Shown: in pieces, positions 6,979 through 62,508 of the stretch
Numbering within the stretch: the stretch's first letter is position 1
Layout of the letters: every line of letters begins with the position of its first letter
From: an uncultured Candidatus Saccharibacteria bacterium
GTDB lineage: Bacteria > Patescibacteriota > Minisyncoccia > Phycocordibacterales > UBA2100
Direction: 5' to 3'
NCBI GenBank assembly: GCA_964399865.1
Contig: CAYNRJ010000001.1
Location: 67,727-131,726 of the forward strand
Length of the DNA: 64,000 bases
Translations under genes and position numbers: made by a program
Notes under the pieces: generated by a model
What the model was told of the DNA's origin: nothing
Databases searched by the model: none
The model's input: the letters and a program-made list of their open reading frames with translations, nothing else

Positions 6979-7040
6979 TCAAAAAGTGTACGATATAAAA
7001 GCAAGAAAATCCGCGAGGAAATAGTGAATTGGGGAAAACT

Positions 7041-7082
7041 AAAAAGCAAAGAGGGTCGCCCGGACGTGGGGCGACCCTCTTG
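7041..7082 (-). terminator. intrinsic terminator of the GC-rich secreted-protein gene
   Basis: Perfect 12-bp stem AGAGGGTCGCCC / GGGCGACCCTCT with a 7-nt loop, followed on the - strand by UGCUUUUUAGUUUU. Confidence 0.7.
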
Positions 7083-7109
7083 ATGAAGGCATTCACGCGG
7101 TGTGAACGC

Positions 7110-7559
7110 CTACATGAGGCCGAGCGCGATCAGCGTTGCGGCGGTCGCCGGTTCGGCATCGTCGTACGGCCCGCAACGGCCGGCCACGACGAAGCGTGCA
7201 CCGCCCTCGTTGTAGGACGAAGAGCCGCAGGCTTCGATCTGGGCATCAGGCCCCCATTGCACGATTGCAGAAGGACCGAAGCCGGTGCCCTGACGCAGCC
7301 ATACGGACACGCCGTTGTTGGGGTTGACGTACGCCGACCAGGTGACGCCACGGTCGTCCGTGACCTCGGCCGTGAAGTACTTCGAGCTCTGGGCGATATC
7401 CGCGAGGATGTCGCCGAACGGCGGCGGAGACGGCGCCATGACGACCACGAACGCCGTCGCTGCCGGCTTCGTATCGTCGACAGAGGCAGCAAGCGCATTC
7501 GGGATGGCCGCGGCAAGCATAAGAGCGGCCGAAGCCGCGATTGCGATACGCTTCATCAT
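7110..7559 (-). CDS. small secreted protein (signal peptide), carried on a GC-rich island
   Basis: Start at MMKRIAIAASAALMLAAAIPNALA preceded by AAAGGAGGG. Region 7029-7700 is visibly much GC-richer than its flanks. Has its own strong terminator. No recognisable domain. Confidence 0.55.
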   Translation of the reverse strand: MMKRIAIAASAALMLAAAIPNALAASVDDTKPAATAFVVVMAPSPPPFGDILADIAQSSKYFTAEVTDDRGVTWSAYVNPNNGVSVWLRQGTGFGPSAIVQWGPDAQIEACGSSSYNEGGARFVVAGRCGPYDDAEPATAATLIALGLM

Positions 7560-7728
7560 CTGATTTGGCCCTCCTTTCAGGCCATGTAAAGTGAAGATCA
7601 GTAGAACCCTGCTCGCCAGAGTGGCGTAGCTAGGTGGTCGCATTCTACCACTCCTTACGGCTCCGTCAAGAGCCGTATGGGCCTCGGAGAGGAGTCAATG
7701 TACCTATTTAGCATGATGACTACTGATG

Positions 7729-7748
7729 CGAAAAAGGCAATAAGCCTT
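7729..7748 (-). terminator. candidate hisS terminator
   Basis: AAGGC-UUAUU-GCCUU hairpin followed by UUUUCGC on the - strand, 16 nt after the hisS stop. Confidence 0.4.
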
Positions 7749-7763
7749 ATGGGATAACTTATT

Positions 7764-8993
7764 TTATCCAGCCACAGCGCTCTTCCACACTCCCATCCGA
7801 TGTCTTTTAAGGTAATTCGTTAATTCAGGAACCGGAACTGCCTCTTGAGAGTTTGTTGCGACCTCACGAACTAGTATCGTGCCCTCAACAGCCTCCTTAT
7901 GTCCCATAATCAGAATGTACGGAGTTGCGTGATGTCTTGCTGCAGCCATCTGTTCGCCAATTCTTTCATGAAGAAGTCCTTGGTGGACCGGAATACTGTC
8001 CTTTCGTAAGGTCTCAAGAATCGAAAGTGATCTACGACGTGCTTCTGCCCCTAGGTGAGCGAAATAAATCGCTGGCAATCCGGCGTTGTCTCTTTTTTGT
8101 CTTGTTGGAACACGTCCGCGGAGTTCACACGTGATACTGATCATCGCAGACGGCATTGATCGACGTGCAAATCTTGCTGCAAGAGGATCGTAGCGGCCTC
8201 CGAAGGCGAGCGAGATGCGTCCTCCTGTTTCTTGATCGAGTGTTGATATCTCAAATAGGGAATGTGACCAGCAATCACGACTTCCAAGTACCTGTGGAGA
8301 GAGTTCGTACGGCAACCCGAACACTTCTAGGTACTCAAGTAGCTCCCAGAATCGTCTTCGCTCTTCTTCTGTAAGATATTCCATCGCCTGAGGCGCGCGC
8401 GGGACAGCAGGGTGTCCTCGTTCGATGAGTTGGACGAGCGCGCCTAGTGGATCTGTAGCTGCGCGAGGGCGAAGTGTCGGCGTAATTGACTCAATATGTT
8501 TTCGTAGATAGGCAGAAACGTCTCGCACGAAGCGATTTGATGACTCCATCGATCCAATGTTGTTCACGGAGAGTACTCGCTTGGAAATTCCCGCTTCCTG
8601 CGCGATTGCATCAGCTACAACTATGAGAAGCGCCTCGGCAATTGCAGAAGAATTTCCCACAACATGCAATTCAAGACCTACACTCGGTATTCCATCGCGC
8701 TCTTTTGCAGAATTTTCGCTCATTCGCCATACAAGCACCGGTTTTTCCGGGGTTTGTGCGCAAGAAATACACTTTCGAGCGGAAACAGCGAGTGGTCGCT
8801 CCTCGCGGCGTGCGAACATGATTTCCGATGGATCGCGCTTCGACTGAACTGGCTTTGGTTCGCCGCTTCTTGCTTGGCGAGAAGTTTTCATTGACTCTTC
8901 GAGCGATGAAAATCCGTAATATTCTGCGATACGGATAGCCGATGAAAGAAATCCGGCGGTATTTTGATGCTGAGTATCTTTTAGACGGATCAT
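7764..8993 (-). CDS. hisS: class IIa aminoacyl-tRNA synthetase, histidyl-tRNA synthetase-like
   Basis: GGRYD motif-3 region and C-terminal class II anticodon-binding domain (ILIMGHKE...). N-terminal motif 1/2 region is divergent. Confidence 0.6.
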   Translation of the reverse strand: MIRLKDTQHQNTAGFLSSAIRIAEYYGFSSLEESMKTSRQARSGEPKPVQSKRDPSEIMFARREERPLAVSARKCISCAQTPEKPVLVWRMSENSAKERDGIPSVGLELHVVGNSSAIAEALLIVVADAIAQEAGISKRVLSVNNIGSMESSNRFVRDVSAYLRKHIESITPTLRPRAATDPLGALVQLIERGHPAVPRAPQAMEYLTEEERRRFWELLEYLEVFGLPYELSPQVLGSRDCWSHSLFEISTLDQETGGRISLAFGGRYDPLAARFARRSMPSAMISITCELRGRVPTRQKRDNAGLPAIYFAHLGAEARRRSLSILETLRKDSIPVHQGLLHERIGEQMAAARHHATPYILIMGHKEAVEGTILVREVATNSQEAVPVPELTNYLKRHRMGVWKSAVAG

Positions 8994-9071
8994 GAAAGGT
9001 TTTTAGTAGTAAGTTTGTAGTATTCACCCACGTGACAAACGACTATTGTCTTATCGACTACCTGCTAATAA

Positions 9072-9692
9072 CTACTCTTCAAATTTCGCTTCTCCGGGAA
9101 GTACACCAATGCGATCAAAAGGGAATAAACGAAGGAATGCGCGGCCAACAATGTTCTCTCGAGGGAGTGGTCCCCAAATGCGGGAGTCAGAAGATACGTG
9201 ACGATTGTCTCCCATCACGAAATATTCGTCTGCACCAAGCGTAATTTGCATATCATTTCTGCCGCCAAGGTTTGTCGGGTCAAGATACGGCTCATCGAGT
9301 AGGAATCCATCGGGATTTGCGGCGTTTTCTATAGTAATTCCCTCAGGAGTGATGATTACTTTCTCATTTGGGAGGCCAATGACGCGCTTTATGAGTGATT
9401 TACTCGGTGTTCCTGGCAATCCAAACACAATAACGTCTCCTCTTGAGGGGTTTTCAAGCGTGTAGGTGATGCGATCGACGACGAGGTAGTTACCGTCGTG
9501 GAATGTTGGGTCCATAGATGCTCCGTCGACGAGATATGGCGCTGCAACGAAGAATCGAATGATGAGTGCGAAGCCAAGTGCGAGGATAAAATAGAAAAAG
9601 AGGGAGCGAGAAGACGTTTTTGGAGTCGGCGCAGGAGAAATTGTATCCAGTGATAAATCTTTTTCGATCACAGGAACATTCATGCGCGGCAT
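9072..9692 (-). CDS. lepB: signal peptidase I
   Basis: N-terminal TM anchor; boxes B (GASMDPTF) and E (GDNRHVSSDSRIWG) of SPase I. Confidence 0.85.
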   Translation of the reverse strand: MPRMNVPVIEKDLSLDTISPAPTPKTSSRSLFFYFILALGFALIIRFFVAAPYLVDGASMDPTFHDGNYLVVDRITYTLENPSRGDVIVFGLPGTPSKSLIKRVIGLPNEKVIITPEGITIENAANPDGFLLDEPYLDPTNLGGRNDMQITLGADEYFVMGDNRHVSSDSRIWGPLPRENIVGRAFLRLFPFDRIGVLPGEAKFEE

Positions 9693-9920
9693 TGTACTAC
9701 TTTTATGGCGTTGACACCAAGTTGTTGTAGTGTTGCTCCGCTCGAAGCGCTATATATTTTTCGTACACGAATATTTTTCTGCTGAAAAATTCCTCGAGTT
9801 CGCGCCGTCGCGCTCACTGGGTACTCAAAACATATAGCGCTCCTCACTACGCGTGTTTTTTTTCGTGTCGTACCTTAAGAGTACCTGGCTTTTCTCGTTT
9901 TTCTGCTAGAATGCCGCCAT

Positions 9921-10511
9921 ATGACATGGGTAATCGTTGGCCTAGGCAATCCAGGAGAGAAATACGAGGCATCTAGGCATAATGCTGGCCGTATCGCAGT
10001 ACAATTTTTTGCAAAAGTTTCTAAGTTGAAGGATTGGACTGAGCACAAGACGTCAAATTCGCTTACAGCGGCTGGAATGGTGGGGAAAGTGGCTGTTGCG
10101 GCGATTTTGCCCAACACATTTATGAATAAATCCGGTTCTGCAGTGGTGAAGTTCGTAAAATCTGCAAAGGCGGCTGAACATTTGGTCGTTGTTTACGATG
10201 ATCTCGATCTTCCGCTTGGAAAATTTAAGATTTCCTTCGATCGAGGGAGCGGTGGTCATAAAGGACTCGAATCAATCATGCGTGCCGTGAAGACAAAGAA
10301 GTTTGTGCGGGTACGAATTGGTGTTTCTCCGGAGACCGCGGGAGGTTCTCTTAGAAAACCTGATGGCGAGAAGGCTGTTCTCGATTTTATTTTGACGAAA
10401 TTCAAGCCTAGTGAGGTGGATACGCTCAAAAAAGTATTCAAACAAGTAGCAGAAGTATTAAGCGTGATCGTGCTGGAAGGAAGAGAAATTGCGATGAATA
10501 GGTTTAATTGA
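9921..10511 (+). CDS. pth: peptidyl-tRNA hydrolase
   Basis: VGLGNPGEKYEASRHNAG N-terminal signature; 196 aa. An extended -10 (TGCTAGAAT) sits 6 nt upstream of the ATG, suggesting a leaderless mRNA. Confidence 0.9.
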   Translation: MTWVIVGLGNPGEKYEASRHNAGRIAVQFFAKVSKLKDWTEHKTSNSLTAAGMVGKVAVAAILPNTFMNKSGSAVVKFVKSAKAAEHLVVVYDDLDLPLGKFKISFDRGSGGHKGLESIMRAVKTKKFVRVRIGVSPETAGGSLRKPDGEKAVLDFILTKFKPSEVDTLKKVFKQVAEVLSVIVLEGREIAMNRFN

Positions 10512-10633
10512 GGTCGTTCGCGGGTGTTGTGTTGTTCGGGTCGCTGTCTGCCGCTGCTGCGGCAGCGCTCACTCTCGGCCCGACGGCCTGCGAGAGACCC
10601 TCACAACACAACACCCTCTCACTAAGGAGAGGG
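10512..10633 (+). repeat. GC-rich structured repeat element, copy 2 (candidate ncRNA)
   Basis: Starts immediately after the pth stop. Perfect 14-bp outer stem GGGTGTTGTGTTGT / ACAACACAACACCC. Inner hairpins CTGCCGC-TGCT-GCGGCAG and GGCC-CGAC-GGCC. 3' hairpin CCCTCTC-ACTAAG-GAGAGGG. Confidence 0.65.
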
Positions 10634-10661
10634 TGTGTGGAGGAGTGTGAAGAAACGGAGG

Positions 10662-11783: not shown

Positions 11784-12284
11784 TGTAATAATTCGTCCGG
11801 GCTATCCTGCTTGCTCTACCGTATCAGTCTGCAGGGAAGCGTTAACCGAACAACTAACTAATAAATAAGCCCCTTACGGGGACGCTCAATATATATGAAG
11901 TCTGGCTTTTATACAAGCCATTAAATGAGTGGGGGCGCTGCTTCGAAAAGCGCGCCCCCTTCGGTCCAACTCCATAGGACCGATGATCCGCTATTAAAAG
12001 CGGTTACGAGCTTATGTACAAAGATCACTTTACGAGTCCTTAAGAAGACTTCGAGGATCATCTTCTCAAAGGATGTTCCGTACCTACCTCCATCAGCTTA
12101 GGGTTTCGAGTTATTCATCGCCCTCAGCGATGTGGACGATCATCTCGTCCTCCCAACTTGCGTTGATAGGGACTCTCCTCGCACATGACAAGAGAGCCAC
12201 TCTCCCCGGTATTGCACCAGAACGTGCTCACGGGTCACCGCAACGCTACTCCTGTCGAACTAAGGCGTCAATGTATACATGTGA

Positions 12285-12932: not shown

Positions 12933-12934
12933 CT

Positions 12935-13168
12935 ATGGTCCTTGAAAATACTGTTAACAATTTGCGTGAGCGTCCTCGCGATCAGCGGAAAAAAATAGCC
13001 GCGATCGCAGCTCTTGCGGTGATTGTTATACTGTTCCTCGGTTGGGCGATACTTTTCTTCAAGAAGATCCAAAATACTGAGCCGATTCAACTTGACGCTG
13101 TACGAGAGGATTTTGAAGAGAGTTTTCCAGGTACTGAAACGGGCGCGAGTGGAGAAGTCACACAATAA
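12935..13168 (+). CDS. small membrane protein
   Basis: 77 aa with one TM helix (IAAIAALAVIVILFLGWAILFF); tightly packed between neighbouring genes. Confidence 0.4.
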   Translation: MVLENTVNNLRERPRDQRKKIAAIAALAVIVILFLGWAILFFKKIQNTEPIQLDAVREDFEESFPGTETGASGEVTQ

Positions 13169-13170
13169 TC

Positions 13171-15555: not shown

Positions 15556-15574
15556 GTTTATTATCGCGGTCGCG

Positions 15575-20889: not shown

Positions 20890-22200
20890 ATGACTCGCTC
20901 AAAAATATTTTGGATTGTTGCACTTTTCATTCTGATTGGAGGAAGTGGCGTCGGAGGTTACGCATATTCCACGTATCCGTCCGAAAATAGTTCTCCCACC
21001 TACCTCACTCCGGAAGAGGAGGACATATACGTGCGATTTGGAATGGAGGTGTTCGATAAGGTGAATGCTAATTATTGGGAAAAGCTTGATGAGGCGCAAT
21101 TCTCTGAATTATTCCGCGCTGCGACCGAAAAGGCTGTAAACGCTCCAATTTCTCTAGCGACATCTACCCGTGCAGGAGTGGCGTCGATGCTCGCTGCAGC
21201 CGTAAACGCTCAAACTTCAACTTCGACGAAGGCAGAATTGATCAAGAATGTCTCAATTGTAGTCCTCGCGAATCTTCCTCCAGCTGGTCGCCTAGGTCTT
21301 ATGTCACAGAAGCAGGAGACTGAGCTTCGTCAGAACGTGAGCAATATAAATCCAGAGAAGGATCTGTACGCAGACCTCGGTCTCACAAAAGGTGCCTCAG
21401 TAGCTGCTGTTACGGCTGCGTTTGAGGAAAAAGTGGAGACGCTGGCGGATGCAACAACCACGGAAGCTAAAGCGGAATTGGCAAAAGCAGAATACGCGCA
21501 CGAAGTTCTCACAAAGGAGAGTAGTAAGACCCTCTACGATGGTGCTGGAATAGAACCTACGCTATATACGCGCAAATTTGGAAAGACTTTGTACATGAAC
21601 CTAACGAAAATTTCGCCAACAACTTTCCAGGAATTTGGGTTAGCGATAGATGCAGCATCAACGACTCCGGGAATGGATAGTCTCATCTTGGACGTCCGAG
21701 GGAATGTTGGCGGCTCCCTTGATTTCGCCCAGGCGTTCCTCGGTTTATTTATTGGTCAGAATCAATATGCGTTCGACCTGTATCATCAGGGTGATTTTGA
21801 TGTGATGCGTACAACTTTCGGAAACTATCCGCTTTTGGAGAGATACAAGGAAATCGCCATTCTCACAGACAACATGACGCAGTCGACGGCAGAAGTAATG
21901 ACCGCTTCGCTTAAACGAATGAATCTTGCCCACGTTGTCGGAGGGACAACGAGGGGGTGGGGAACTGTCGAGAACACGTTCCCAATCGATACTATGCTCA
22001 CCCCTGATGAAAAGTTCGTTCTATTCCTTGTCCATTCCATAACGCTCCGTGAAGATAATCAGCCGATAGAGGGAAGAGGCATCACTCCTGATGTAGATAT
22101 TGCAAATCCGCTCTGGAAACAAAAGTTAACTGAATACTTTAAATCACCAAATCTAATTCAAGCTCTCAAAGAGACTGCTGCAGGCGCTCCTTTGCACTAA
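20890..22200 (+). CDS. membrane-anchored S41-family (C-terminal processing) peptidase
   Basis: N-terminal TM, then S41 core with LILDVRGNVGGSL and TASAAE-like motifs. The central stretch DLYADLGL...YDGAG resembles a degenerate J-domain lacking HPD. Confidence 0.65.
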   Translation: MTRSKIFWIVALFILIGGSGVGGYAYSTYPSENSSPTYLTPEEEDIYVRFGMEVFDKVNANYWEKLDEAQFSELFRAATEKAVNAPISLATSTRAGVASMLAAAVNAQTSTSTKAELIKNVSIVVLANLPPAGRLGLMSQKQETELRQNVSNINPEKDLYADLGLTKGASVAAVTAAFEEKVETLADATTTEAKAELAKAEYAHEVLTKESSKTLYDGAGIEPTLYTRKFGKTLYMNLTKISPTTFQEFGLAIDAASTTPGMDSLILDVRGNVGGSLDFAQAFLGLFIGQNQYAFDLYHQGDFDVMRTTFGNYPLLERYKEIAILTDNMTQSTAEVMTASLKRMNLAHVVGGTTRGWGTVENTFPIDTMLTPDEKFVLFLVHSITLREDNQPIEGRGITPDVDIANPLWKQKLTEYFKSPNLIQALKETAAGAPLH

Positions 22201-22285
22201 ATTTCTCCGGGAAAGCCCACTCGCACTCTGAGATATTTTATGTAACTATTTCGGCGGGTTCGTTGTGAACCTGGAGGACTGAAGT

Positions 22286-22621
22286 ATGCGGGTCGCTGTT
22301 ATTGACGGTGACGAGGGTGTACGTGAGGAATTTCGTGTAGCTCTTGCTCCTCATGGGGAGTACGATGTGCGGACGTTCGAGACCCCCGAGGTGGCGATCG
22401 AGCACATCAGGAGGATTCCCTACGACGTCCTTATTGTCGGTGAAGTAGGTCTGTTTCTTACCCTGGCACCAAACGCTTGTTTCGACGAGCTGATCCTGGT
22501 TCTCGGTAACGATCGCGACTTGCGTCGCCTTCTGCCTGATCTGCACACACGGATCTCCATACTGGCTGATGCACGCCATACTCTTGGCGCGTATCGTTGG
22601 TATAGAGGGACTCATCCCTAG
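22286..22621 (+). CDS. orphan pseudo-receiver (CheY-like REC) domain protein on a GC-rich island
   Basis: GGAGGA RBS 8 nt upstream. MRVAVIDGDEG...YDVLIVGEVG has REC topology, but the phospho-acceptor Asp is replaced (LIVGEV). Region is GC-richer than its flanks. Followed by hairpin GGCTCCGGGAG-AACTA-CTCCCGGGGCC. Confidence 0.45.
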   Translation: MRVAVIDGDEGVREEFRVALAPHGEYDVRTFETPEVAIEHIRRIPYDVLIVGEVGLFLTLAPNACFDELILVLGNDRDLRRLLPDLHTRISILADARHTLGAYRWYRGTHP

Positions 22622-22745
22622 GCTCGTCCGCTCTGGTGGCTCCGGGAGAACTACTCCCGGGGCCTCCGAATTTCCATTGAGATTTTGTACTGTGGTATAG
22701 TGCTCATACCTAACCCCTATCTCCAGATGGGGGCGGATTTACGTT

Positions 22746-25424
22746 ATGTCAGAATCAAAAAATAGCGGGAAAGACACAAATTCTTCCGTAGGAGCGGATA
22801 AAATCGTCATAAAAGGTGCACGAACTCACAACTTGAAGAACGTGAGTGTTGAAATTCCACGCAACAAAATGGTGGTGTTTACAGGCCTCTCTGGAAGCGG
22901 CAAATCGTCACTCGCGTTCGATACGATATTTGCGGAAGGTCAGCGCAAGTATGTTGAATCTCTTTCCGCGTACGCACGACAATTCTTAAGACAGATGCAG
23001 AAACCTGATGTTGATGAAATTACAGGACTCTCGCCGGCTATTTCCATCGACCAAAAATCTCGTTCCAACAACCCTCGTTCGACGGTCGCAACAATTACCG
23101 AGATTTATGACTACCTTCGCGTGCTGTATGCACGTATTGGAAAGGCACACTGTCTCGAATGTGGTCGAGAAGTACGGAAGCTTTCGAATGAAGAAATATT
23201 GGAGACTGTCTTTGGAATGGTGGAGGAGGCTCGCAAACAGAAAAAGGAAATTTCTCCAAAAGCGAAACTCACAAAAGGGGTTTCTGCAGACAGGATTCGT
23301 ATAAGCTCGCCCGTTGTTGTGGGAAGAAAGGGTGAATACTATCAATTACTTTACGACCTTTTGAATAAAGGGTACGAAAAAGTCATTATCGATGGTGAGG
23401 AGAAGTCTCTACGTACTCGTATTGAGCTTAAAAAGCATTTTAAACACAATATCGACGTGGTCGTGGATGAGATCTTCGTTTCGGAGTTTACTGATGATCT
23501 AAAGGGAACGCGTGAGCGTGCAGCTGAGGCTATTGAAAAGGCTCTGTCGGAATCCGATGGACTTGCCCGTATCACAGATCCAAATGGAGGCGAAAAAGTT
23601 GTATCTGCCAAATTTATGTGTCCGTATGACGGTTTCTCGTTCCCAGAAGTAGAGCCACGTCTTTTCTCGTTTAATTCACCGTACGGTGCGTGTCCTGAAT
23701 GTAAAGGTCTTGGTACCAAATATTTCTTTGGTGATGAGCCATGTGATGTGTGCAAAGGTGCACGACTCCGACCTGAGGCGCTCAACGTCTTTATCGGCAA
23801 GAAATACGAGCCTGAAGAAGGAAGAGATAAAAACAAAACGACTAATATCGTTGAACTTGCCGCCCTTTCGATTCAGGACGCGAAGGATTTCTTCGACGGA
23901 CTTAAGCTCACGAAAAAGGAGGAAGATATTTCTCGCGTTGTGATTAAAGAGATCATGAGCCGCCTTCAGTTCATGCTGAACGTCGGTATCGAATATTTAA
24001 CGCTTGATCGAAAGGCGAACACGCTTTCTGGAGGCGAAGCACAGCGTATTCGCCTTGCGTCTCAGCTCGGCAGCGGGCTTGTAGGTGCTCTGTATGTACT
24101 AGATGAACCAACAATTGGACTTCACCAAAGGGACAATGATCGTCTCATTAACACGCTCAAGCACCTGCGCGACCTCGGAAACACTGTTCTCGTTGTTGAG
24201 CACGATGAAGATACAATTTACGCGTCAGATTATATTGTCGATATTGGTCCTGGGGCCGGCGTACACGGAGGAAACATTGTCGCATCTGGTTGGCTCGATG
24301 AACTCCTCACTGCAAAGACAAATAAATCAGGCTCACGCACGCTCTCATATCTGCGCGAAGAATCCGCAATAGAATTACCCGAGCAAAGGAGAACCGCGGA
24401 CCGTGGGAAGCTGAAAATTCGTGGTGCATCAAAGTTCAATCTTGAGAATGTGAACGCGGACATTCCCCTCGCGAAACTCGTTCTCATTACGGGTGTTTCC
24501 GGTTCTGGGAAATCAACATTCCTCTATGAAATATTGCACCGAAACCTCCTCGCAAAATTCGATAAACGCTATCGGACGGCCAAAATATACAATGTGAAGG
24601 AATTTAGCGGCACAGACTACCTTGGGCGCTCAATATTGATTGATCAGTCTCCGATAGGAAGAACGCCACGATCGAACCCCGCGACCTATACAGGGGCTTG
24701 GACGCATATACGCGACCTCTTTGCCATGTCAGAGGAGTCAAAGACGCGTGGATGGGGGCCGGGACGCTTCTCGTTCAACGTAAAAGGAGGACGATGCGAA
24801 GCATGCCAAGGGAACGGTCTTGTCGCTGTTGAAATGCACTTCTTGCCGACTGTGTACGTGACCTGCGACGTGTGTATGGGAAAGCGATTCATGAAAGAAA
24901 CACTTGAAGTTAAATACAAGAAAAAAAGCATTCATGATGTGCTCTCAATGACCGTTGAGGAGGCACTTAAATTCTTCGAAGATATTCCTGCGATTTCTGA
25001 TCGTTTGCAAACTCTTTCAGATGTCGGTCTTGAGTATCTCGAGCTTGGCCAAAGCGCAACAACTCTCTCAGGTGGAGAAGCGCAGCGTGTGAAAATCGCA
25101 TCTGAGCTCTACCGTCCTCTTCAAACAAAGACGATGTACCTTCTAGATGAGCCAACAGTAGGACTCCACTATGACGATGTCGCTAAATTGATTTCTATTC
25201 TTCAGAAGCTAGTCGAGAGAGGGAATTCGGTCGTCGTAATCGAACACAATCTCGACATGCTGAAATGCGCTGATTACATTCTTGACCTTGGTCCTGAAGG
25301 TGGTGGAGGAGGAGGTAAGATCGTAGCTAAAGGAACTCCAGAAGAAGTTGCAAATACGGATGGCTCACACACGGGGTATTACCTAAAGAAGGTACTCAAA
25401 AAGCATAAAAATCATAAGAATTGA
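22746..25424 (+). CDS. uvrA: excinuclease ABC subunit A
   Basis: Two ABC ATPase modules (GLSGSGKSS / GVSGSGKST Walker A motifs, LSGGE signatures) and zinc-finger cysteines; 892 aa. Confidence 0.95.
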
Positions 25425-25485
25425 CCCCTCTGCGTGAATGATGTGCGACATCGTGTTATAGTCTTGCCCGGGTCGGATCAGACCT

Positions 25486-25509
25486 TAGACAAACGACACG
25501 AGAGTGTCG
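25486..25509 (+). terminator. uvrA intrinsic terminator
   Basis: CGACAC-GAGA-GTGTCG hairpin followed by TTTTTGCGG, about 60 nt after the uvrA stop. Confidence 0.5.
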
Positions 25510-25563
25510 TTTTTGCGGCAACAACGAGGGAACGGAATAGTGACTCAACCTAAGATAATTCCG

Positions 25564-25848
25564 ATGAGCCACGTGGATAGGCTCAGGAAGAGGCTGGGAG
25601 GACGGAGGCTCACCTTCGTCCGAGGGGATCTCATCAGGCACGGACATGTCCGTGAAGTTGAGATACGGCATGACGGCAAACTCGTCGTACGCTGTTCGTG
25701 GACCGATCCGTCTCCCGACGGAAGCGTCCACGATGAACTCGTGACAACAACTGGGCACAAAGATCCGGTCGAGGATGCAGAGGGGACAATCACAATACCC
25801 TTTCATCCCCATGGCGAGCTCCGGCTTATTCCTGCGGCCAGACTCTAG
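25564..25848 (+). CDS. hypothetical small protein on a GC-rich island (strand uncertain)
   Basis: 94-aa ORF with high GC3, followed by a + strand terminator. No SD. An alternative Cys-rich ORF exists on the - strand (25456..25860). Confidence 0.3.
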   Translation: MSHVDRLRKRLGGRRLTFVRGDLIRHGHVREVEIRHDGKLVVRCSWTDPSPDGSVHDELVTTTGHKDPVEDAEGTITIPFHPHGELRLIPAARL

Positions 25849-25909
25849 GGCCTTGATCACCGGCTAGATAGACGTAGCGCAGCGCTCGTTGAACTAGTCG
25901 ATCGCAACT

Positions 25910-25946
25910 ACTCCGGGCGCCACGCGTGCCCGGAGTTGATTTTTTT
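25910..25946 (+). terminator. GC-rich intrinsic terminator
   Basis: ACTCCGGGC-(9-nt loop)-GCCCGGAGT stem followed by TGATTTTTTT; abuts the carB stop. Confidence 0.55.
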
Positions 25947-32591: not shown

Positions 32592-32663
32592 GGGCCAGTA
32601 GTTCAGTGGTAGAACGTCTCATTTGCAATGAGAAAGTCGGGGGTTCGATTCCTCTCTGGTCCA
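32592..32663 (+). tRNA. tRNA-Ala (anticodon UGC)
   Basis: Cloverleaf: acceptor GGGCCAG/CTGGTCC with the G3:U70 Ala identity pair. D-arm GTTC-AGTGGTA-GAAC. Anticodon stem TCTCA/TGAGA with loop TTTGCAA. T-loop GGTTCGATT. No encoded CCA. Confidence 0.7.
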
Positions 32664-32672
32664 CACATTTAT

Positions 32673-44088: not shown

Positions 44089-44153
44089 CCGCGCTATAGC
44101 GCCATATTGCTCGATAAAGGGCGATATGGTATGGTTTGCCGACTAGAGATATG

Positions 44154-44462
44154 GCCAAAATAGCTATTATAGAAACAGGCGGAAAGCAGTACCTCGTTAC
44201 GCAGGACACCGTTTTGGATGTTGAGAAACTTGAGTCCGCAAAGGACGGGAAAATCACCTTTGATAAGGTTCTCCTTACTGACGATGGCAGTTCAACGAAA
44301 GTAGGCGCTCCATATATTACTGGTGCAAAAGTATCCGCTGAAGTCGTTCAGGAAGGTCGCGCAAAGAAAGTCGTCGTCATCCGCTACCGCGAAAAGAGCC
44401 GTTACTTCAAGAAACGAGGCCACCGTCAGCCTTACACAAAAGTCCGAATCACTGCCCTCTAG
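44154..44462 (+). CDS. rplU: 50S ribosomal protein L21
   Basis: MAKIAIIETGGKQY... L21 signature; no rpmA follows. Confidence 0.9.
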   Translation, partial: AKIAIIETGGKQYLVTQDTVLDVEKLESAKDGKITFDKVLLTDDGSSTKVGAPYITGAKVSAEVVQEGRAKKVVVIRYREKSRYFKKRGHRQPYTKVRITAL

Positions 44463-44476
44463 AGGGCAGTTTTCGC
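44452..44476 (+). terminator. rplU intrinsic terminator
   Basis: Palindrome CTGCCCTCTAGAGGGCAG overlapping the rplU stop, followed by TTTTCGC. Confidence 0.55.
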
Positions 44477-44555
44477 ACGTCCTTGACGAAGGATGCTAGG
44501 GATTGCTAAATTTCCCCGGGTTCAATGTCGGGCCTGAATTCACATGGAGGCGGAT

Positions 44556-45038
44556 ATGTCCGCGTATTGGGAGCTCAGAATCAGGACGGGAAGTCGGTCA
44601 GTTGAGGATATGTTGCGTGAGATGGGCGCAACAAGGCATGTCGACTGGGAGGTGGGGGAGATCATCAGGGAGTCAGGTGTCACCCAAATCGACGCCGGTG
44701 AGTATTCGTTTGCTGCGCTGTTCGGCTACGAATTCGATGACGGCTGGAGAAGGACTGGTGACATCACAAGCCAAGCCCGTCGTCTCTCGTATCACCACCC
44801 GAGAGTGGAGCACGCGATCTTGCTGGGCTTGCAGCCGCAGGCGCTGTTACCGGCGCACATGAGCGTGGTCTTCCATCCTCCCGTAACTGTCAGGTCGGTT
44901 TCGAGTGATGCTCTTCGACCGCGCATGATTGCGTTTGGGGAGAGTTCGGGGAGCCGGTGCTACGCGAGTGCTCCAAGATCGGATGCTTCCGGCGAATGGT
45001 ACCCGGACAGAGCGTTCGTCTTCCTGAATCCGAGATAG
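44556..45038 (+). CDS. hypothetical protein on a GC-rich island, in the position usually occupied by rpmA
   Basis: GGAGGC RBS 5 nt upstream. Putative promoter TTGACG-18-TAAATT. High GC3. Own terminator at 45044-45078. No recognisable domain. Confidence 0.45.
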   Translation: MSAYWELRIRTGSRSVEDMLREMGATRHVDWEVGEIIRESGVTQIDAGEYSFAALFGYEFDDGWRRTGDITSQARRLSYHHPRVEHAILLGLQPQALLPAHMSVVFHPPVTVRSVSSDALRPRMIAFGESSGSRCYASAPRSDASGEWYPDRAFVFLNPR

Positions 45039-45043
45039 AGCAA

Positions 45044-45078
45044 TTCTCGGACGGGTGCCCCGGATTTATTCGGGGCAC
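45044..45078 (+). terminator. GC-rich intrinsic terminator
   Basis: GTGCCCCG-GATTTATT-CGGGGCAC followed by TGTTCTATTTTCGG. Confidence 0.5.
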
Positions 45079-45082
45079 TGTT

Positions 45083-57470: not shown

Positions 57471-57516
57471 GGTGCAATAGTACGGCCCGCAGGGGATTCT
57501 GTATATACTGGTATCA

Positions 57517-58197: not shown

Positions 58198-58232
58198 GAT
58201 TACGTCGATGAGATGTCATCTCATCCCGTTTT

Positions 58233-59504
58233 TTATGAACGCAAAAGTGCGAGAAGCGCAGCGGAATTTGTATGCGGACCGATAACCGCGAGATTTAGAG
58301 TTTTCGTTTTAAAGATATCCTTCGCGACACGCTGCACATCAGAAGCTGTCACTTTATCAATACCCTCCAAGATTTCCTCGAGCGTGCGAACTTTTCCGAC
58401 GTTTATGAGTGAAGTTGCTGCATTTTCGGCGATGGCATCACTTGTTTCAAGCGCAAGCGTAAATGTGCCTCGCATGTAGGCCTTAATTTTCTTTAGCTCT
58501 GCGGCAGGAACTGGCGCGCGCTTCATTTTCTTCAGCTCATTTAGGATGGTTTCTACCGCTTTCTCCAATTTCCCATGTTCCACGCCCGCCTGCACAACAA
58601 AATAGCCAGTGTCAGGGTATTTATCAGTCCAGGCGCGCACAGAATAGGCGAGTCCACGCTTCTCGCGTACTTCCATAAAGAGACGGCTCGACATACCCGC
58701 GCCAAGGATGGCCGTGAGCACTTCGAGTGCGTATTCGTCCTTGTGTAAATACGGATACGCAGGCATTCCAAGCATCAGCTGCGTCTGATCTGTTTTCTTT
58801 TCTTTAATGAGAATACGAGGGGAGTCTTGTTCGGGCGAGAAACGAATGTAATCCGGTGGATTTCCGTGCTTCAAGCCCCCGAATTCTCTATTGATCTTCG
58901 CAAGCACTGATTTCTCATTAAATCCGCCAGCTACACAGACGACGGTATTTAACGGTGTGTAGTTACGTTTTAGATACGCAGCAAAATCTTTGCGTTTGAA
59001 AGTCCTAATATTTTCTTTGGGACCGAGAATATTTCGTCCCAGTGGATGTTCTTTGCCGAAAATAAGTACATCAAACACATCTCCGATAGTGCGCATTGGC
59101 ATATCTTCGTACATGTCGATTTCCTGGATGACCGCACCTCGCTCCTTCGTAATTTCTTTTACCGGAAGCGTAGAATTTAGAAAAATATCACTTATGACAT
59201 CGAGTGCTGTATCGAGATAACGGCTACTGACCTTTGCGTAGTACGCAGTCCTCTCCTTTGATGTGAAAGCGTTGTACACGCTACCGATTGAATCGAGTTC
59301 TTCACTGATAGCACGTGCACTGGGACGTTTTTTTGTACCCTTGAAAAACATGTGCTCCAGAAAGTGAGCTAGACCGTTCTCTTTCTGATCCTCGTATCTT
59401 GAGCCCGTACCCGTCATCACGATGACAGTTGCAGTCTTTCCGTCCTTTACGGGAACCAGAACGACTCGTAGGCCATTTTTAAGAGTATGGATGTAGTGCT
59501 TCAT
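58233..59504 (-). CDS. M16-family zinc peptidase (insulinase-like)
   Basis: HFLEHMFFKGT inverted zinc-binding motif (HxxEH); start at MKHYIHTL. Confidence 0.8.
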   Translation of the reverse strand: MKHYIHTLKNGLRVVLVPVKDGKTATVIVMTGTGSRYEDQKENGLAHFLEHMFFKGTKKRPSARAISEELDSIGSVYNAFTSKERTAYYAKVSSRYLDTALDVISDIFLNSTLPVKEITKERGAVIQEIDMYEDMPMRTIGDVFDVLIFGKEHPLGRNILGPKENIRTFKRKDFAAYLKRNYTPLNTVVCVAGGFNEKSVLAKINREFGGLKHGNPPDYIRFSPEQDSPRILIKEKKTDQTQLMLGMPAYPYLHKDEYALEVLTAILGAGMSSRLFMEVREKRGLAYSVRAWTDKYPDTGYFVVQAGVEHGKLEKAVETILNELKKMKRAPVPAAELKKIKAYMRGTFTLALETSDAIAENAATSLINVGKVRTLEEILEGIDKVTASDVQRVAKDIFKTKTLNLAVIGPHTNSAALLALLRS

Positions 59505-59609
59505 GTGGGCGCATAGTATCCTTTCTATGAGAGTCAGGCAAAGTAGATTGACAATAGGTATATGCTCTATAGCGTGTATGTAGTGCAACCTTAGCAGGAA
59601 GGATAAACG

Positions 59610-60170
59610 ATGGCCCCGCCGTTCTTGGTGCTGCGCGAAACCAAGCGCATTGTGCTCGCGAGACCGTTCGATCCTCGTGAGTTCTTCGGCCGGAAGAGGA
59701 AGGCGCCGCATTTCTTCTTACTCAATGATGTTTTGTCTTTGGCTCGACCTGTGGATGCTGGCACGGAATTCGACGTCCACATTTTCGAGGTCGGTAGTCG
59801 CGAGGTGTCACTCGACGCACTAGCAACACGCGGGATTAATACAACCGAGGAGTTTGTTGCGTCTTTGGATAAGCTGATGCCCACTATTCAGAATATCCGA
59901 GCAGCATTGCCGACCCCGAGATACTTTGAACCAACGGCATTGTGTGCGGTCCTTGGCGCCATACTCGATCCGCAGCTTAACGGCTCCGAAGGCGACTTGA
60001 GTACACAGCATGACAATCTGTTCTTTGCGGAATCGTGCTGGGTCTTCGCTAGGTGCGTCGAGTGGAGCGAACCTGGAGAAGAGCTGAAACTATGGACAGT
60101 CAACAGCATGCCGCTGTCCCATCAGACGAGCTACAGTCGGGGGCCTTATGTGTTTGCGCCCGCGCTATGA
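59610..60170 (+). CDS. hypothetical protein
   Basis: AGGAAGGA RBS; 186 aa; followed by a terminator; no recognisable motif. Confidence 0.45.
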   Translation: MAPPFLVLRETKRIVLARPFDPREFFGRKRKAPHFFLLNDVLSLARPVDAGTEFDVHIFEVGSREVSLDALATRGINTTEEFVASLDKLMPTIQNIRAALPTPRYFEPTALCAVLGAILDPQLNGSEGDLSTQHDNLFFAESCWVFARCVEWSEPGEELKLWTVNSMPLSHQTSYSRGPYVFAPAL

Positions 60171-60176
60171 CGCTCA

Positions 60177-60210
60177 AGGGGTCGCGTTCGCGCGGCCTCT
60201 TTGCTTTTTT
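60177..60210 (+). terminator. intrinsic terminator upstream of alaS
   Basis: AGGGGTCGCG-TTCG-CGCGGCCTCT stem (two wobble pairs) followed by TTGCTTTTTT. Confidence 0.5.
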
Positions 60211-60235
60211 AGCTAGAAACGGTACTCTTTTCGGA

Positions 60236-62158
60236 ATGACTCTTAACGAAGTAAGGTCTAAATACCTAGCTTTCTTAGAGAAGCACGGCCACGTCATAAT
60301 ACCGAGTGCCCCAATCGTGCCTCAGAATGACCCGACGACCCTTTTTACTGGAAGCGGCATGCAGCCGCTTGTTCCATACCTCCTCGGAAAACCACATCCA
60401 AAAGGTAGCCGCCTTGTAAATAGCCAAAAATCTTTCCGTGCGGAAGATATCGAGGAGATCGGCGATAATCGTCACACCACATTTTTCGAGATGCTCGGTA
60501 ACTGGTCGCTCGGAGATTATTTCAAAAAAGAACAGTTGCCATTTTTCTTTGGATTTCTTACAGATGAAATTAAACTCGATCCGAAACGTTTGTACGTAAC
60601 GGTCTTCATCGGTGATGAAAAAAATAATGTGCCTCGAGATACTGAATCTGCAGGAATTTGGAAGGAGCAGTTTGCGAAGAAGGGCATTGATGCAAAAGAG
60701 GTCGTGATCGGATCAGAAGAGGACGGCTATCGTCTTGGCATGCAGGGCGGCCGCATCTTTTACTACAACGCGAAGAAGAATTGGTGGAGTCGCGCAGGAG
60801 TTCCTGAAAATATGCCTGCAGGTGAGCCGGGAGGACCGGATTCCGAGGTGTTTTATGACTTTGGAACGCCCCACGATGCAAAATTCGGTAATGAGTGCCA
60901 TCCAAACTGCGACTGCGGACGATTCCTTGAGATAGGGAACTCGGTTTTCATGCAGTACATCAAGAAAGAGGATGGCACATTTGCCCTTCTTCCTAAGCAA
61001 AATGTCGATTTCGGAGGCGGCCTAGAGCGTATTACAGCAGCATCAAATGGAGATCCGGATGTCTTTGGCACCGATGCATTTCAAGATGTAATTGGGCTAC
61101 TCGAGAAATTCTCAGACAAACTTTACACCGACAGCCGCTATCAGAGATCGTTCCGCATCGTCGCGGACCATGTCCGCGCAGCAGTCTTTATGATCGGAGA
61201 TGGGGTCATTCCATCAAACACCGAGCGCGGATACGTCCTCCGTCGCCTTATTCGTCGTGCAGCTCAGCATACGGCAAAGCTAGGTACATCTGACAAGGAT
61301 GAAGATGACAGCATGCTCGTGCGCGCGGCGATCATGTTCATCGAAAAGTACAAACATGCGTATTCAGAGCTCGACGGCGAGGCTACATACGAAAAAATTA
61401 AAGAGGAGATTTGGAAGGAGGAGAAGCAATTCGCAAAAACTCTCACAAACGGTCTCCGAGAGTTTGAAAAGATCGCACTACAAGGAAAAATCTCCGGTGA
61501 AGAAGGTTTTGTACTATTTTCGACGTACGGATTCCCCTTTGAAATGACTCGAGAACTCGCAAAGGAGCGCGGAATCGCAGTCGACGACGAAGGATTTAAG
61601 CTAAAGATGAAAGAACACAGCGAATTATCGCGCGCAGGAGGGGAAAAGAAATTCAAGGGAGGTCTTGCGGATTCATCCGAAGCAACAACACGCCTCCACA
61701 CCACACACCACCTTCTTCTTCGCGCACTTCAGATCGTCCTTGGTCCTCACGTGAAGCAGCGCGGCTCAAATATCACACAAGAGCGTCTCCGAATAGACTT
61801 TTCACACGGTGACAAAATGACTCCTGAGCAAATCCTGGAGGTAGAACGCATAGTGAACGAAAAAATCCGCGAAAAATTGCCCGTAACTCACTCAACTCTT
61901 CCAAAAGAAGAGGCGGAAAAGCTCGGCGCAGAGCACGAGTTCGGTGCAAAGTATCCAGATGTGGTTTCCGTCTATTCCGTGGGACCATCCGGCGCATCGC
62001 TCGCAAATCCACAATTCGACAAAGCATTTTCAATAGAATTTTGCGGTGGTCCGCACGTAACCAACACTGAAGAGATTGCAAAGGCAGGAACTTTCAAGAT
62101 AAAGAAGGAGGAGGCAGTCGCAATGGGTATTCGCCGCATCAAAGGCGTGTTGGTATAG
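60236..62158 (+). CDS. alaS: alanyl-tRNA synthetase, short form lacking the C-Ala domain
   Basis: Class II catalytic core, tRNA-recognition and editing domain (HTTHHLL...H motif); 640 aa from MTLNEV. Confidence 0.9.
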   Translation: MTLNEVRSKYLAFLEKHGHVIIPSAPIVPQNDPTTLFTGSGMQPLVPYLLGKPHPKGSRLVNSQKSFRAEDIEEIGDNRHTTFFEMLGNWSLGDYFKKEQLPFFFGFLTDEIKLDPKRLYVTVFIGDEKNNVPRDTESAGIWKEQFAKKGIDAKEVVIGSEEDGYRLGMQGGRIFYYNAKKNWWSRAGVPENMPAGEPGGPDSEVFYDFGTPHDAKFGNECHPNCDCGRFLEIGNSVFMQYIKKEDGTFALLPKQNVDFGGGLERITAASNGDPDVFGTDAFQDVIGLLEKFSDKLYTDSRYQRSFRIVADHVRAAVFMIGDGVIPSNTERGYVLRRLIRRAAQHTAKLGTSDKDEDDSMLVRAAIMFIEKYKHAYSELDGEATYEKIKEEIWKEEKQFAKTLTNGLREFEKIALQGKISGEEGFVLFSTYGFPFEMTRELAKERGIAVDDEGFKLKMKEHSELSRAGGEKKFKGGLADSSEATTRLHTTHHLLLRALQIVLGPHVKQRGSNITQERLRIDFSHGDKMTPEQILEVERIVNEKIREKLPVTHSTLPKEEAEKLGAEHEFGAKYPDVVSVYSVGPSGASLANPQFDKAFSIEFCGGPHVTNTEEIAKAGTFKIKKEEAVAMGIRRIKGVLV

Positions 62159-62205
62159 TAATCATAGACAGACGGTCACGTCTGTTGATCAGATAGGAGG
62201 TCGTG

Positions 62206-62397
62206 ATGAACGATGAGGACATGTACCGTCCCTTGACCGGTGAGGAGGTCAGGGAAGGCGCGAGGGTCTCCCGTCACGGAAACGAAAACGTGCTTTCGCG
62301 GGCATGCTATTCGCTGACCTTCACGCTTATCGAGCCATTCCTGATGCTCGGTATTCTGATGGTCGCTACGCTGATCAAGGATGCACGCTCCTGGTGA
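62206..62397 (+). CDS. small membrane protein on a GC-rich island
   Basis: AGGAGG 6 nt upstream; 63 aa with hydrophobic C-terminus (LIEPFLMLGILMVATLI); followed by a GC-rich hairpin. Confidence 0.4.
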   Translation: MNDEDMYRPLTGEEVREGARVSRHGNENVLSRACYSLTFTLIEPFLMLGILMVATLIKDARSW

Positions 62398-62417
62398 CTG
62401 CATCGCCTTGGGCTGCA

Positions 62418-62456
62418 GAGGCGGCGGAGATTACGATCCCGCCGCCTCAACAGTTT
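62418..62456 (+). terminator. GC-rich terminator-like hairpin
   Basis: GAGGCGGCGG-(11-nt loop)-CCGCCGCCTC followed by AACAGTTTTAAT (weak U-tract). Confidence 0.35.
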
Positions 62457-62508
62457 TAATACACACGATAGGACAGAGAAAAAAAATACAGGAGGTATAC
62501 TAGTAGGT

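Follow-up and report, generated by a model that had tools for sequence, protein, structure and literature searches.

Small GC3-rich orphan reading frames in the long gaps of a Kaiserbacteria-type genome

Gene content of the long gaps

The window, by which we mean the whole 64,000-nt stretch of DNA that was analysed, has a GC content of 48.9% and comes from a tiny, streamlined genome of the Kaiserbacteria type, within the Patescibacteria (CPR). Its core gene order is kept across the family in the relatives that we compared. Gaps of at least 350 bp between genes occur at only seven places: five intervals that a sequence-only reading had described as GC-rich islands, the gap at 59505-60235, and the gap at 11784-12284. 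The last of these is ordinary in composition, and each of the other six is filled by an orphan gene. The neighbours of the islands are housekeeping genes (aaRS, uvrABC, carAB, recR, dnaB, rplU and similar), and the six cassettes are scattered over 55 kb (Table 1).

The sequence-only reading had assigned to each island one small ORF with its own Shine-Dalgarno (SD) motif and/or a -35/-10-like promoter, and had considered the five proteins to be unrelated to one another; the SD motifs are read at those places and the proteins share no similarity. Its claims of promoter-like signals and of a terminator for each ORF hold in part. Both signals were recovered in islands 1 and 4 and a terminator in island 3, while the hairpins of islands 2 and 5 did not pass the rules of the scan. 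Placement in the 3' gaps of neighbouring genes is likewise correct for all five islands listed, but a sixth cassette of the same kind lies in a divergent 5' gap, between alaS and the gene for an M16 peptidase, whose true starts are near 60236 and 59504, respectively.

Table 1. Features of the six orphan-gene cassettes and of the accessory genes beside island 1.
Feature	Coordinates	Strand	Description
Island 1 transcription unit	7049..7669	-	promoter-like site, SD, CDS, intrinsic terminator
Island 1 promoter-like site	7669-7642	-	TTGACG-16-TAGAAT (consensus scan)
Island 1 SD	7578-7570	-	AAAGGAGGG
Island 1 CDS	7559-7110	-	149 aa, Sec-type signal peptide MMKRIAIAASAALMLAAAIPNALA/AS
Island 1 intrinsic terminator	7081-7049	-	13-bp stem and T tail
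705-aa Gly/Cys-rich secreted protein	4622-6739	-	downstream of island 1, GC3 0.44
79-aa membrane protein	6739-6978	-	downstream of island 1, GC3 0.43
Island 2	22286..22663	+	SD, CDS, hairpin
Island 2 CDS	22286-22621	+	111 aa, receiver-like; SD GGAGGA
Island 2 GC-rich hairpin	about 22640-22663	+	fails T-run or loop rule of the scan
Island 3	25421..25936	+	conserved TTGACC just past the uvrA stop codon; CDS, terminator
Island 3 CDS	25564-25848	+	94 aa
Island 3 alternative CDS start	GTG 25540	+	102 aa, better SD GAGGGA
Island 3 bidirectional terminator	25910-25936	+	consensus scan
Island 4	44483..45079	+	promoter-like site, SD, CDS, terminator
Island 4 promoter-like site	44483-44512	+	consensus scan
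Island 4 CDS	44556-45038	+	160 aa, SD GGAGG; alternative start 44544
Island 4 terminator	45054-45079	+	consensus scan
Sixth cassette	59610..60201	+	absent from earlier list; CDS and terminator
Sixth cassette CDS	59610-60170	+	186 aa, GC3 0.62
Sixth cassette terminator	60176-60201	+	
Island 5	62206..62448	+	SD, CDS, hairpin
Island 5 CDS	62206-62397	+	63 aa, C-terminal hydrophobic helix; SD AGGAGG
Island 5 hairpin	62418-62448	+	fails T-run or loop rule of the scan

Products could be predicted for four of the islands. The product of island 1 is probably a secreted protein; it has two weak Pfam matches (E about 0.1), both under the curated cutoff, and an alignment-free structure prediction (pLDDT 38.7) was unusable. 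Island 2 probably encodes a receiver-like signalling or adaptor domain. The Pfam family Response_reg (PF00072) aligns to residues 3-51 only, at 15.6 bits against a cutoff of 30.2, and a PDB profile search returned sub-threshold matches only, to the KaiA pseudo-receiver and to receivers (E 0.13-0.43). The Asp of the predicted phospho-acceptor position is replaced, the protein of the window having IVGE where a homologue in a sister genome (L009) reads VIAD. The island 4 product is probably a folded cytoplasmic alpha/beta protein, with a confident AlphaFold model (pLDDT 87.5) for which a C-type-lectin or FGE-like fold is a candidate, and that of island 5 probably a tail-anchored membrane peptide.

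Composition of the orphan genes

By bulk GC, the impression that all five islands are richer than their surroundings is clearly borne out for island 1 (6979-7763; 58.3%, z=3.8), island 3 (25425-25944; 56.0%, z=2.4) and island 4 (44463-45082; 57.3%, z=3.0), and marginal for island 2 (22201-22745; 53.6%, z=1.6) and island 5 (62159-62508; 52.9%, z=1.2). The core of island 1 (7051-7450) is the richest 400 bp of the window at 66.5%; its ORF has a GC of 0.656, with a GC3 of 0.787 against a GC2 of 0.55, and long ORFs run through the island in several frames.

Codon use separates the orphan ORFs from the core more sharply. GC3 in islands 1 to 5 is 0.787, 0.545, 0.611, 0.673 and 0.719, so that all six orphan ORFs (0.545-0.787) exceed every one of the 58 core genes of the window (0.465 +/- 0.034, maximum 0.528; Mann-Whitney p = 3.8e-5). 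Synonymous choice is shifted toward CTG, CCG, GTC and ATC, and amino acid use differs as well, with Lys at 1.6% against 6.8% in the core and Arg at 8.7% against 5.7%. A 3-base compositional periodicity is significant in all six ORFs (p = 5e-5 to 0.012). The view that these are real, separate small genes, distinct in composition from the core, is in keeping with these measurements. On periodicity, SD sites and, for island 1, the signal peptide, we regard the four singletons (islands 1, 3, 5 and the sixth cassette) as putative coding genes.

The GC3 excess is also found in homologues from other genomes: 0.685 against 0.406 in the neighbouring genes for island 2 (L009), and 0.658 against 0.55-0.57 (L008) and 0.629 against about 0.53 (L090) for island 4. 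These homologues stay GC3-rich although their synonymous sites are saturated. For this reason the GC-richness cannot simply be read as a measure of how recently a gene was imported; a fading foreign signature does not predict an excess that persists in diverged homologues, which points instead to a gene-specific force. Accessory status alone does not make a gene GC-rich, since the genes for the 705-aa and 79-aa proteins beside island 1 (4622..6978) have native-like GC3. Nor are GC-rich variable gaps a rule of the family, an idea that we rejected when 53 of 63 gaps in 25 relatives proved to be at or below core GC; on average, these gaps have a lower GC than the core.

GC-richer relatives do exist in the Kaiserbacteria clade (57-59% GC; 57.4% in L094 and 58.9% in L039), and alaS of L094 has a GC3 of 0.73. 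Some of the intergenic DNA of this genome is itself GC-rich and structured, with gaps of 58-63% GC and a 3-way-junction element that recurs. One copy lies at the far left of the larger accessory block around island 1. The five islands contain none and are not bordered by one, and we therefore rejected the element as a cassette border.

The same sites in related genomes

We compared the cassette sites with those of relatives. In L017 rpsU and ybeY come immediately after the HisRS-like gene, and window positions 4487-7763 are thus extra relative to that genome. Two further relatives (L006 and L007) have unrelated GC-rich ORFs with signal peptides 3' of the HisRS-like gene. The ORFs at this site are alike in the signal peptide only, and the flanking DNA ceases to match precisely at the stop codon of the HisRS-like gene. 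A second, independent assembly, made from a different run (L003, SRR14271366), is 100% identical to the window through island 1 and the DNA on either side, and a further Logan contig has the same gene calls at islands 2 and 3, both of which support the earlier statement that the islands are not assembly chimeras.

For island 2, a homologue that is 38% identical lies directly upstream of uvrA in L009, with the 5' leader and the hairpin conserved; the adjacent UvrA N-terminus is 93% identical. The gene is absent at the same site in L005 and L004, and the spacer from the S41 gene to uvrA is 56 bp in L005. Non-synonymous differences are rarer than synonymous ones (pN 0.45, pS 0.74), and by this measure we take island 2 to be a real protein-coding gene. 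Its syntenic homologue speaks against reading it as a recent insertion.

Island 3 is absent in the same two relatives, where the sequence between uvrA and carB is unrelated to it. In both, a conserved strong promoter 3' of uvrA leads into a GC-rich stretch of 150-190 nt that is closed by a terminator. No ORF spans that stretch, and L004 has a 68-aa ORF further downstream. Island 5 is absent in four relatives (L094, L096, L108 and L114), whose spacers between AlaRS and the next gene are only about 60-175 bp. In L140 another ORF, of 130 aa, lies between the M16 gene and alaS; in L093 and L094 little space separates these two genes.

Island 4 has the longest record. Its family is present in the same L21-RecR gap of three relatives (L008, L090 and L092), the most distant of which has a RecR that is only 72% identical; within the family, P0014 is 67% identical and P0016 and P0017 are 27-31% identical. 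With a dN/dS of about 0.18, island 4 is, as judged from synteny and substitution pattern, ancestral, vertically inherited and under purifying selection, and this ratio together with the confident structure model identifies it as a real protein-coding gene. The proposal that the islands are strain-specific insertions fails for this one. Elsewhere the case for strain-specificity is mixed: islands 3 and 5 are absent in relatives, island 2 is absent in some, and the island 1 site holds other genes.

Homology and mobile-element searches

Homologues were sought exhaustively with HMMER against 1.84 billion protein representatives. Islands 1, 3 and 5 matched nothing but themselves in this set, and the island 1 and sixth proteins are singletons among 5.8 billion clusters. 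Islands 2 and 4 found matches only in small families from sister or family-level Kaiserbacteria contigs, and the description of the set as family-less thus applies to islands 1, 3 and 5 and not to these two. The orphan ORFs had no match in PHROG, PADLOC or NCBIfam, and no family-library match above a curated cutoff. A high-GC donor was not found among about 15 billion proteins. We considered a Saccharibacteria genome with genes from high-GC actinobacterial hosts and rejected this, as the genome groups with Kaiserbacteria/Paceibacteria and there were no actinobacterial or other homologues. Rfam gave no island match at the gathering score and nothing in the spacers of relatives; at E<=5 the only island match was sX11 at 25861-25944, whose 24.5 bits fall short of the gathering score of 70.

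The sequence-only reading had described the islands as cassettes and had suggested looking for conserved boundary motifs or att-like repeats. We found no boundary motif or repeat common to them, the only shared 14-mer being the T-tail of two terminators, and no flanking repeats. Core pairs of the attC-like form RYYYAAC...GTTRRRY number zero in the six islands. Integrases, transposases, recombinases and phage proteins are absent among the annotated ORFs of the window, no viral-contig relatives of the islands were found, and the only tRNA gene of the window (32592-32664) lies far from every island. With no shared ends or attC-like cores, and no recombinase among the annotated ORFs of the window, nothing marks the islands as a common mobile cassette system.

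Discussion

The explanation that we prefer, and to which we give about an even chance of being right, is that the islands are lineage-restricted accessory genes, or ORFans (genes without homologues outside a narrow lineage), in permissive gaps of a streamlined Kaiserbacteria-type genome. Under a rigid core order, only a handful of gaps between operons would let new small genes survive, as places where a gene with its own promoter and terminator may be harmless. Because such gaps would be re-used, the same place in sister genomes can be empty, or can carry a diverged homologue or some unrelated small gene. The six genes would have been gained at different times. Island 4 would be old, passed on vertically under purifying selection; island 2 would already have been present before at least one sister genome branched off, and would evolve fast and have been lost in some lines; and islands 1, 3 and 5 and the sixth cassette are without a known relative. 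Given the lack of mobile-element hallmarks, we infer that recombination in the conserved genes on either side brought in the young ones, and their source may be an unsampled GC-richer gene pool. As no donor sequence was recovered for any island, import is argued from composition and patchy distribution only. The idea that the genes came recently from a high-GC donor can be no more than partly correct, with the donor not found and the homologues of islands 2 and 4 still GC-rich.

These small genes could instead be native and vertically inherited, but so fast-evolving that their homologues can no longer be recognised. Some force acting on these genes in particular, whether selection on codon use or mRNA or GC-biased gene conversion in gaps prone to recombination, would then keep their GC high, with no donor involved. 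We see this as possible but lean against it. In its favour are the slow UvrA beside the fast island 2 homologue, with leader and hairpin conserved at the same site, the divergence of the island 4 family to 25-28% identity at a RecR identity of 72%, the GC3 elevation that persists in both, and, in three sister genomes, island 1 sites that are each occupied by a different secreted ORF of much the same size. Those three ORFs, however, are dissimilar past the signal peptide, and the flanks stop matching at the HisRS-like stop codon; islands 3, 5 and the sixth cassette face spacers of 56-190 bp, which would require many independent losses; and in bacterial genes that evolve fast, GC is normally driven down by mutation bias (PMC12315717).

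De novo birth of the ORFs at their present sites, out of non-coding spacers that were GC-rich, structured and poor in stop codons, is unlikely. It draws on the GC-rich structured gaps and the repeated 3-way-junction element of this genome, the four singletons without any homologue, and the several long frames of island 1. The element is in none of the islands, though, and the corresponding spacers of relatives, far shorter than the islands, have no sequence in common with them, so that there is no ancestral non-coding template and nothing supports birth from the local spacer, as the sequence-only reading had also suggested. Strong codon periodicity, a canonical signal peptide and proper SD sites resemble mature genes, and the de novo candidates reported from gut bacteria are lower, not higher, in GC (PMC11293555). 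It is quite unlikely, too, that the singleton ORFs are chance frames in DNA that is GC-rich but non-coding, for instance a small-RNA gene or a terminator region. Although the singletons have no conservation evidence of coding, and the arrangement 3' of uvrA in L005 and L004 resembles a small-RNA slot, the periodicity of all six ORFs, the correctly spaced SD sequences, the lack of an Rfam match at gathering score and the textbook Sec signal peptide of island 1 all speak for protein. A dedicated mobile system (integron-like, a prophage remnant carrying morons, or a small integrative element) is brought to mind by an anatomy like that of a phage moron or an integron cassette, with one small orphan gene, its own signals and atypical GC. 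In view of the negative searches of ends, core pairs, window ORFs, PHROG, viral contigs and tRNA proximity, we consider it highly improbable, and equally so an assembly chimera, given identical sequence in independent assemblies.

Returning to lineage-restricted accessory genes, we note both likenesses to and differences from known systems. Phage morons are independent promoter-gene-terminator units between conserved genes, often with deviant GC. The cassettes resemble them in being single small genes with their own promoter and terminator, conserved neighbours and atypical composition, but they lie in a cellular chromosome among housekeeping genes, with no phage genes, PHROG matches or viral-contig relatives. 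Integron cassettes are likewise small, mostly orphan, single-ORF units; the window has no attC-like sites, array or intI, and the hairpins here are intrinsic terminators with T runs. Integrative elements and genomic islands differ in tRNA adjacency, flanking direct repeats and an integrase, none of which accompanies the islands of the window. In streamlined genomes such as SAR11 (PMC2217521), integration hot-spots and hypervariable gaps show the same conserved core order and few re-used variable sites, but hold multi-gene islands where we find single genes of 0.35-0.8 kb.

The closest fit is to bacterial ORFans, which are short, lineage-restricted, fast-evolving, mostly rare and without homologues (Daubin & Ochman 2004; PMC11293555; PMC12315717), some bearing signs of purifying selection. 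The genes of the window are short, lineage-restricted and without distant homologues, and no homologue outside the species or genus, the criterion for an ORFan, was found beyond the sister or family-level Kaiserbacteria contigs of islands 2 and 4. They differ in composition: classical ORFans either match their genome in GC or are AT-richer (PMC11293555, PMC12315717), whereas these six are GC3-richer than every core gene. The nearest precedent is the rare 'cloud' orphans, which are higher in GC than other orphans (Vakirlis & Kupczok 2024; PMC11293555). This is the only unusual point, that the orphan genes are GC-richer and not AT-richer than the core; otherwise the case is a tidy description of ordinary accessory genes and involves no new mechanism.

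CPR genomes are tiny, and orphan genes make up a visible fraction of them. The origin of bacterial orphan genes is debated between import, divergence and invention (PMC12315717), and the window offers a clean, small example, with rigid gene order, gaps re-used in sister genomes and a compositional bias opposite to the usual one. We put forward, as a conjecture with rather low chances, that young, fast-evolving orphans of this Kaiserbacteria lineage are systematically GC3-richer than the core, and remain so through saturating divergence. If true, this would reverse the textbook rule that ORFans are AT-rich, and would imply either a compositional force specific to this class of genes, for which GC-biased gene conversion at recombination-prone inter-operon gaps of naturally transformable ultra-small bacteria is a candidate, or a standing GC-rich pool that re-seeds the same few gaps. 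Should the GC3 excess extend genome-wide, it would provide a handle on recombination-linked GC bias versus a hidden donor pool.

Genomic setting

The window has a GC content of 48.9%, and its long housekeeping ORFs are ftsZ/ftsA, ybeY, rpsU, a HisRS-like gene, lepB, pth, aspS, tyrS, uvrB, murB, uvrA, carAB, uvrC, ddl, rplU, recR, dnaB, mnmA and alaS. In a scan of species-representative genomes, its TyrRS had the best matches (73-75% identity) in MAGs carrying the labels Candidatus Kaiserbacteria, Paceibacterota or Patescibacteria, which places the organism in the Kaiserbacteria group of CPR bacteria with small genomes. About 25 relatives share the core order aspS-msrA-zincin-tyrS-uvrB-murB-(gpi)-uvrA-carB. 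A 613-kb NCBI contig and Logan contigs of runs SRR14271372 and SRR14271366 carry the window's exact proteins; finding the sequence unchanged in independent assemblies speaks against assembly chimerism, which the sequence-only reading had also discounted.

Coordinates and composition of features in the window and in relatives (contigs or genomes with prefix L); z is relative to windows of the same length
Feature	Position	Bulk GC (%)	z	ORF GC3
Island 1	6979-7763	58.3	3.8	0.787
Island 2	22201-22745	53.6	1.6	0.545
Island 3	25425-25944	56.0	2.4	0.611
Island 4	44463-45082	57.3	3.0	0.673
Island 5	62159-62508	52.9	1.2	0.719
Sixth cassette, 186-aa ORF	59610-60170(+)			0.62
M16 peptidase-alaS gap	59505-60235
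M16 peptidase ORF, over-extended	58233-59711(-)
alaS ORF, over-extended	60053-62158(+)
Other long gap	11784-12284
Region extra relative to L017	4487-7763
705-aa secreted protein	4622-6739(-)			0.44
HisRS-like protein	7764-8993(-)
S41 peptidase gene	20890-22200
uvrA leader	22693-22745
TTGAC(C/G) box region	25421-25470; L005 4720-4900; L004 3785-3990
rplU (L21)	44136-44462
Structured element, window	1-126(-), 4492-4624(+), 9729-9861(-), 10505-10637(-)
Structured element, relatives	L011 3793-3887(-), L021 1588-1722(-), L098 11350-11444(+)

Composition, signals and positions of the orphan genes

The five islands had been described as visibly GC-richer than their surroundings, and bulk GC upholds this clearly for islands 1, 3 and 4 but only marginally for islands 2 and 5. 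GC at third codon positions gave a cleaner signal, since all five island ORFs exceed the 58 core genes (0.465 +/- 0.034, maximum 0.528). The synonymous shift favors CTG, CCG, GTC, ATC, AAG and AGG, and the orphan proteins are low in Lys and high in Arg, Pro and Ala.

The Shine-Dalgarno motifs quoted in the sequence-only reading are present. A consensus scan called a promoter and terminator for islands 1 and 4 and a terminator for island 3; hairpins exist at islands 2 and 5 but fall short of the scan's criteria. When all inter-gene gaps of the window were listed, those of at least 350 bp comprised the five islands, one gap of ordinary composition and the gap between the M16 peptidase gene and alaS. 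The latter 731-bp gap, with a sixth orphan gene, had been hidden because both flanking ORFs carry spurious upstream extensions; relatives and Pfam coordinates place the true starts at about 59504 (MKHYIHTL...) and 60236 (MTLNEVRSKY...), respectively. The sixth cassette has its own terminator. Because it occupies a divergent 5' gap, location at 3' ends, although true of the five islands, is no rule.

Homologues and loci in relatives

No orphan ORF had a convincing match in Pfam, PHROG, PADLOC or NCBIfam. An exhaustive phmmer search of the five island ORFs against 1.84 billion representatives returned self-matches alone for islands 1, 3 and 5, one match for island 2 (a 107-aa protein, 38% identity) and three for island 4 (67% and about 27-31% identity); the description "family-less" therefore suits the former three and not the latter two. 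Island 1 has no companion among 5.8 billion 90% clusters, and the sixth ORF likewise stands alone in the protein database. Viral contigs were scanned with three queries, namely island 1, the sixth ORF and the family of island 4, and yielded no relatives. The island 2 protein is receiver-like at a sub-threshold level only.

In L009, the island 2 homologue (38%) lies immediately upstream of uvrA with its 5' leader and terminator hairpin recognisably kept, beside a UvrA N-terminus 93% identical to that of the window. Two other close relatives lack island 2: in L005 the S41 peptidase gene and uvrA are 56 bp apart, and in L004 both the island 2 ORF and the S41 gene are missing. The presence of the S41 gene, which lies between gpi and uvrA, varies as well; L005 shares it (74% identity), but L004 and most family-level relatives have none at that position. 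The uvrA leader, TATAGTG followed by AACCCCTATCTCCAGATGGGGGCGGATTT (hairpin CCCC...GGGG) right before the start codon, is retained in these three relatives and the window, even where upstream content differs.

At the island 3 site, immediately 3' of the uvrA stop codon, a TTGAC(C/G) box is common to the window, L005 and L004, followed in the latter two by TATAAT. The sequence beyond it is unrelated between genomes, GC-rich and closed by a terminator; in L005 and L004 it is a 150-190 nt stretch without an ORF, with a 68-aa ORF farther downstream in L004. The site resembles a slot for small RNAs, with contents that are swapped between species.

At the island 5 site, four relatives have about 60-175 bp between alaS and the homologue of a 381-aa gene, versus 350 bp in the window. 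The M16 peptidase-alaS gap holds a different 130-aa ORF in L140, the closest alaS relative, and is short in L093 and L094. In L017 the HisRS-like gene directly precedes rpsU and ybeY, so the window's 705-aa secreted protein, 79-aa membrane protein and island 1 are extra. Two sister genomes, L006 and L007, carry different small signal-peptide ORFs at the island 1 position; these are likewise GC-rich and, outside the signal peptide, resemble neither island 1 nor one another.

Several neighboring genes merit mention. The 705-aa protein, in the accessory block adjoining island 1 yet of native GC3, combines runs of poly-Gly with Cys-rich repeats (CPNMxGVQTSxSQC) and gives weak matches to glycine-rich-domain, CBM and tail-fibre-like proteins. 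The HisRS-like protein matches confidently only the anticodon-binding domain (PF03129; E = 0.05 against the catalytic tRNA-synt_His profile) and may represent either a divergent HisRS or a HisZ-like paralogue. It is conserved: family-level genomes farther away retain it at 71-75% identity, and the copies of the closest genomes share its 90% cluster. In most bacteria rpmA (L27) follows rplU; here, and in L008 and L090, the island 4 gene and a convergent recR come after rplU instead.

A repeated structured element

Outside all islands, a GC-rich element of about 95-133 nt recurs four times in short GC-rich gaps of the window's first 11 kb, oriented independently of adjacent genes. The conserved core, GAGGGTCTCTCGCAGGCCGnCGGGCCGAGAG..AGCGCTGCGCCAGCAGGCGCAGACAGCGACCCGA, forms a three-way junction, and the 14-bp outer stem varies in sequence among copies while pairing is kept. 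Over seven copies, pairing holds in 96% of cells, with compensatory changes at 33 of 36 pairs (covariation score 0.92 versus at most 0.17 for slid controls); owing to G-U pairs, the structure is strand-specific. No Rfam family matches the element, and 1.17 Mb of sequence from more distant relatives contained no copy. It is a candidate for either a new small RNA or a MITE/REP-like element in this Kaiserbacteria sub-clade.

Origin of the orphan genes

Our preferred reading is that all six units are accessory genes, restricted to one lineage, of a streamlined genome in which orphan genes would be tolerated in only a few inter-operon gaps that would turn over between sister species. Import into such re-used gaps has, we judge, an even chance of being correct: GC-richer relatives such as L094 (57% GC, alaS GC3 0.73), together with the shifted codon usage, fit import from GC-richer donors. 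Because ages differ, "repeated recent lateral acquisition" fits only islands 1, 3, 5 and the sixth cassette, partly island 2, and not island 4. The island 2 and 4 homologues are still GC3-rich relative to their neighbors after synonymous saturation, which is not expected of a fading foreign signature and speaks for a gene-specific force maintaining GC in native, fast-evolving genes; we hold this to be less likely than import, but the next most probable explanation.

De novo birth, previously offered beside import, seems improbable to us. Significant three-base periodicity in all orphan ORFs means that they act like coding sequence, and a non-coding reading is very doubtful. Mobile cassettes are similarly hard to credit, as the islands share no boundary sequences or repeats, att-like ones included, and have no attC-like core pairs, and no recombinase, transposase or phage gene was found in the window; there was also no tRNA gene next to an island and no Rfam family match.

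The original observation is thus real if partly overstated, and its interpretation partly right. Bacterial ORFans are usually AT-rich or genome-matching (PMC12315717; PMC11293555), although rare 'cloud' orphans have higher GC (PMC11293555); the GC-richness of the window's orphans is the single feature against expectation. Since variable gaps in the wider family average AT-richer than the core, the GC-rich orphan pattern is specific to this sub-lineage. As a class, accessory orphans in permissive gaps are ordinary, and the unusual twist here is their composition.
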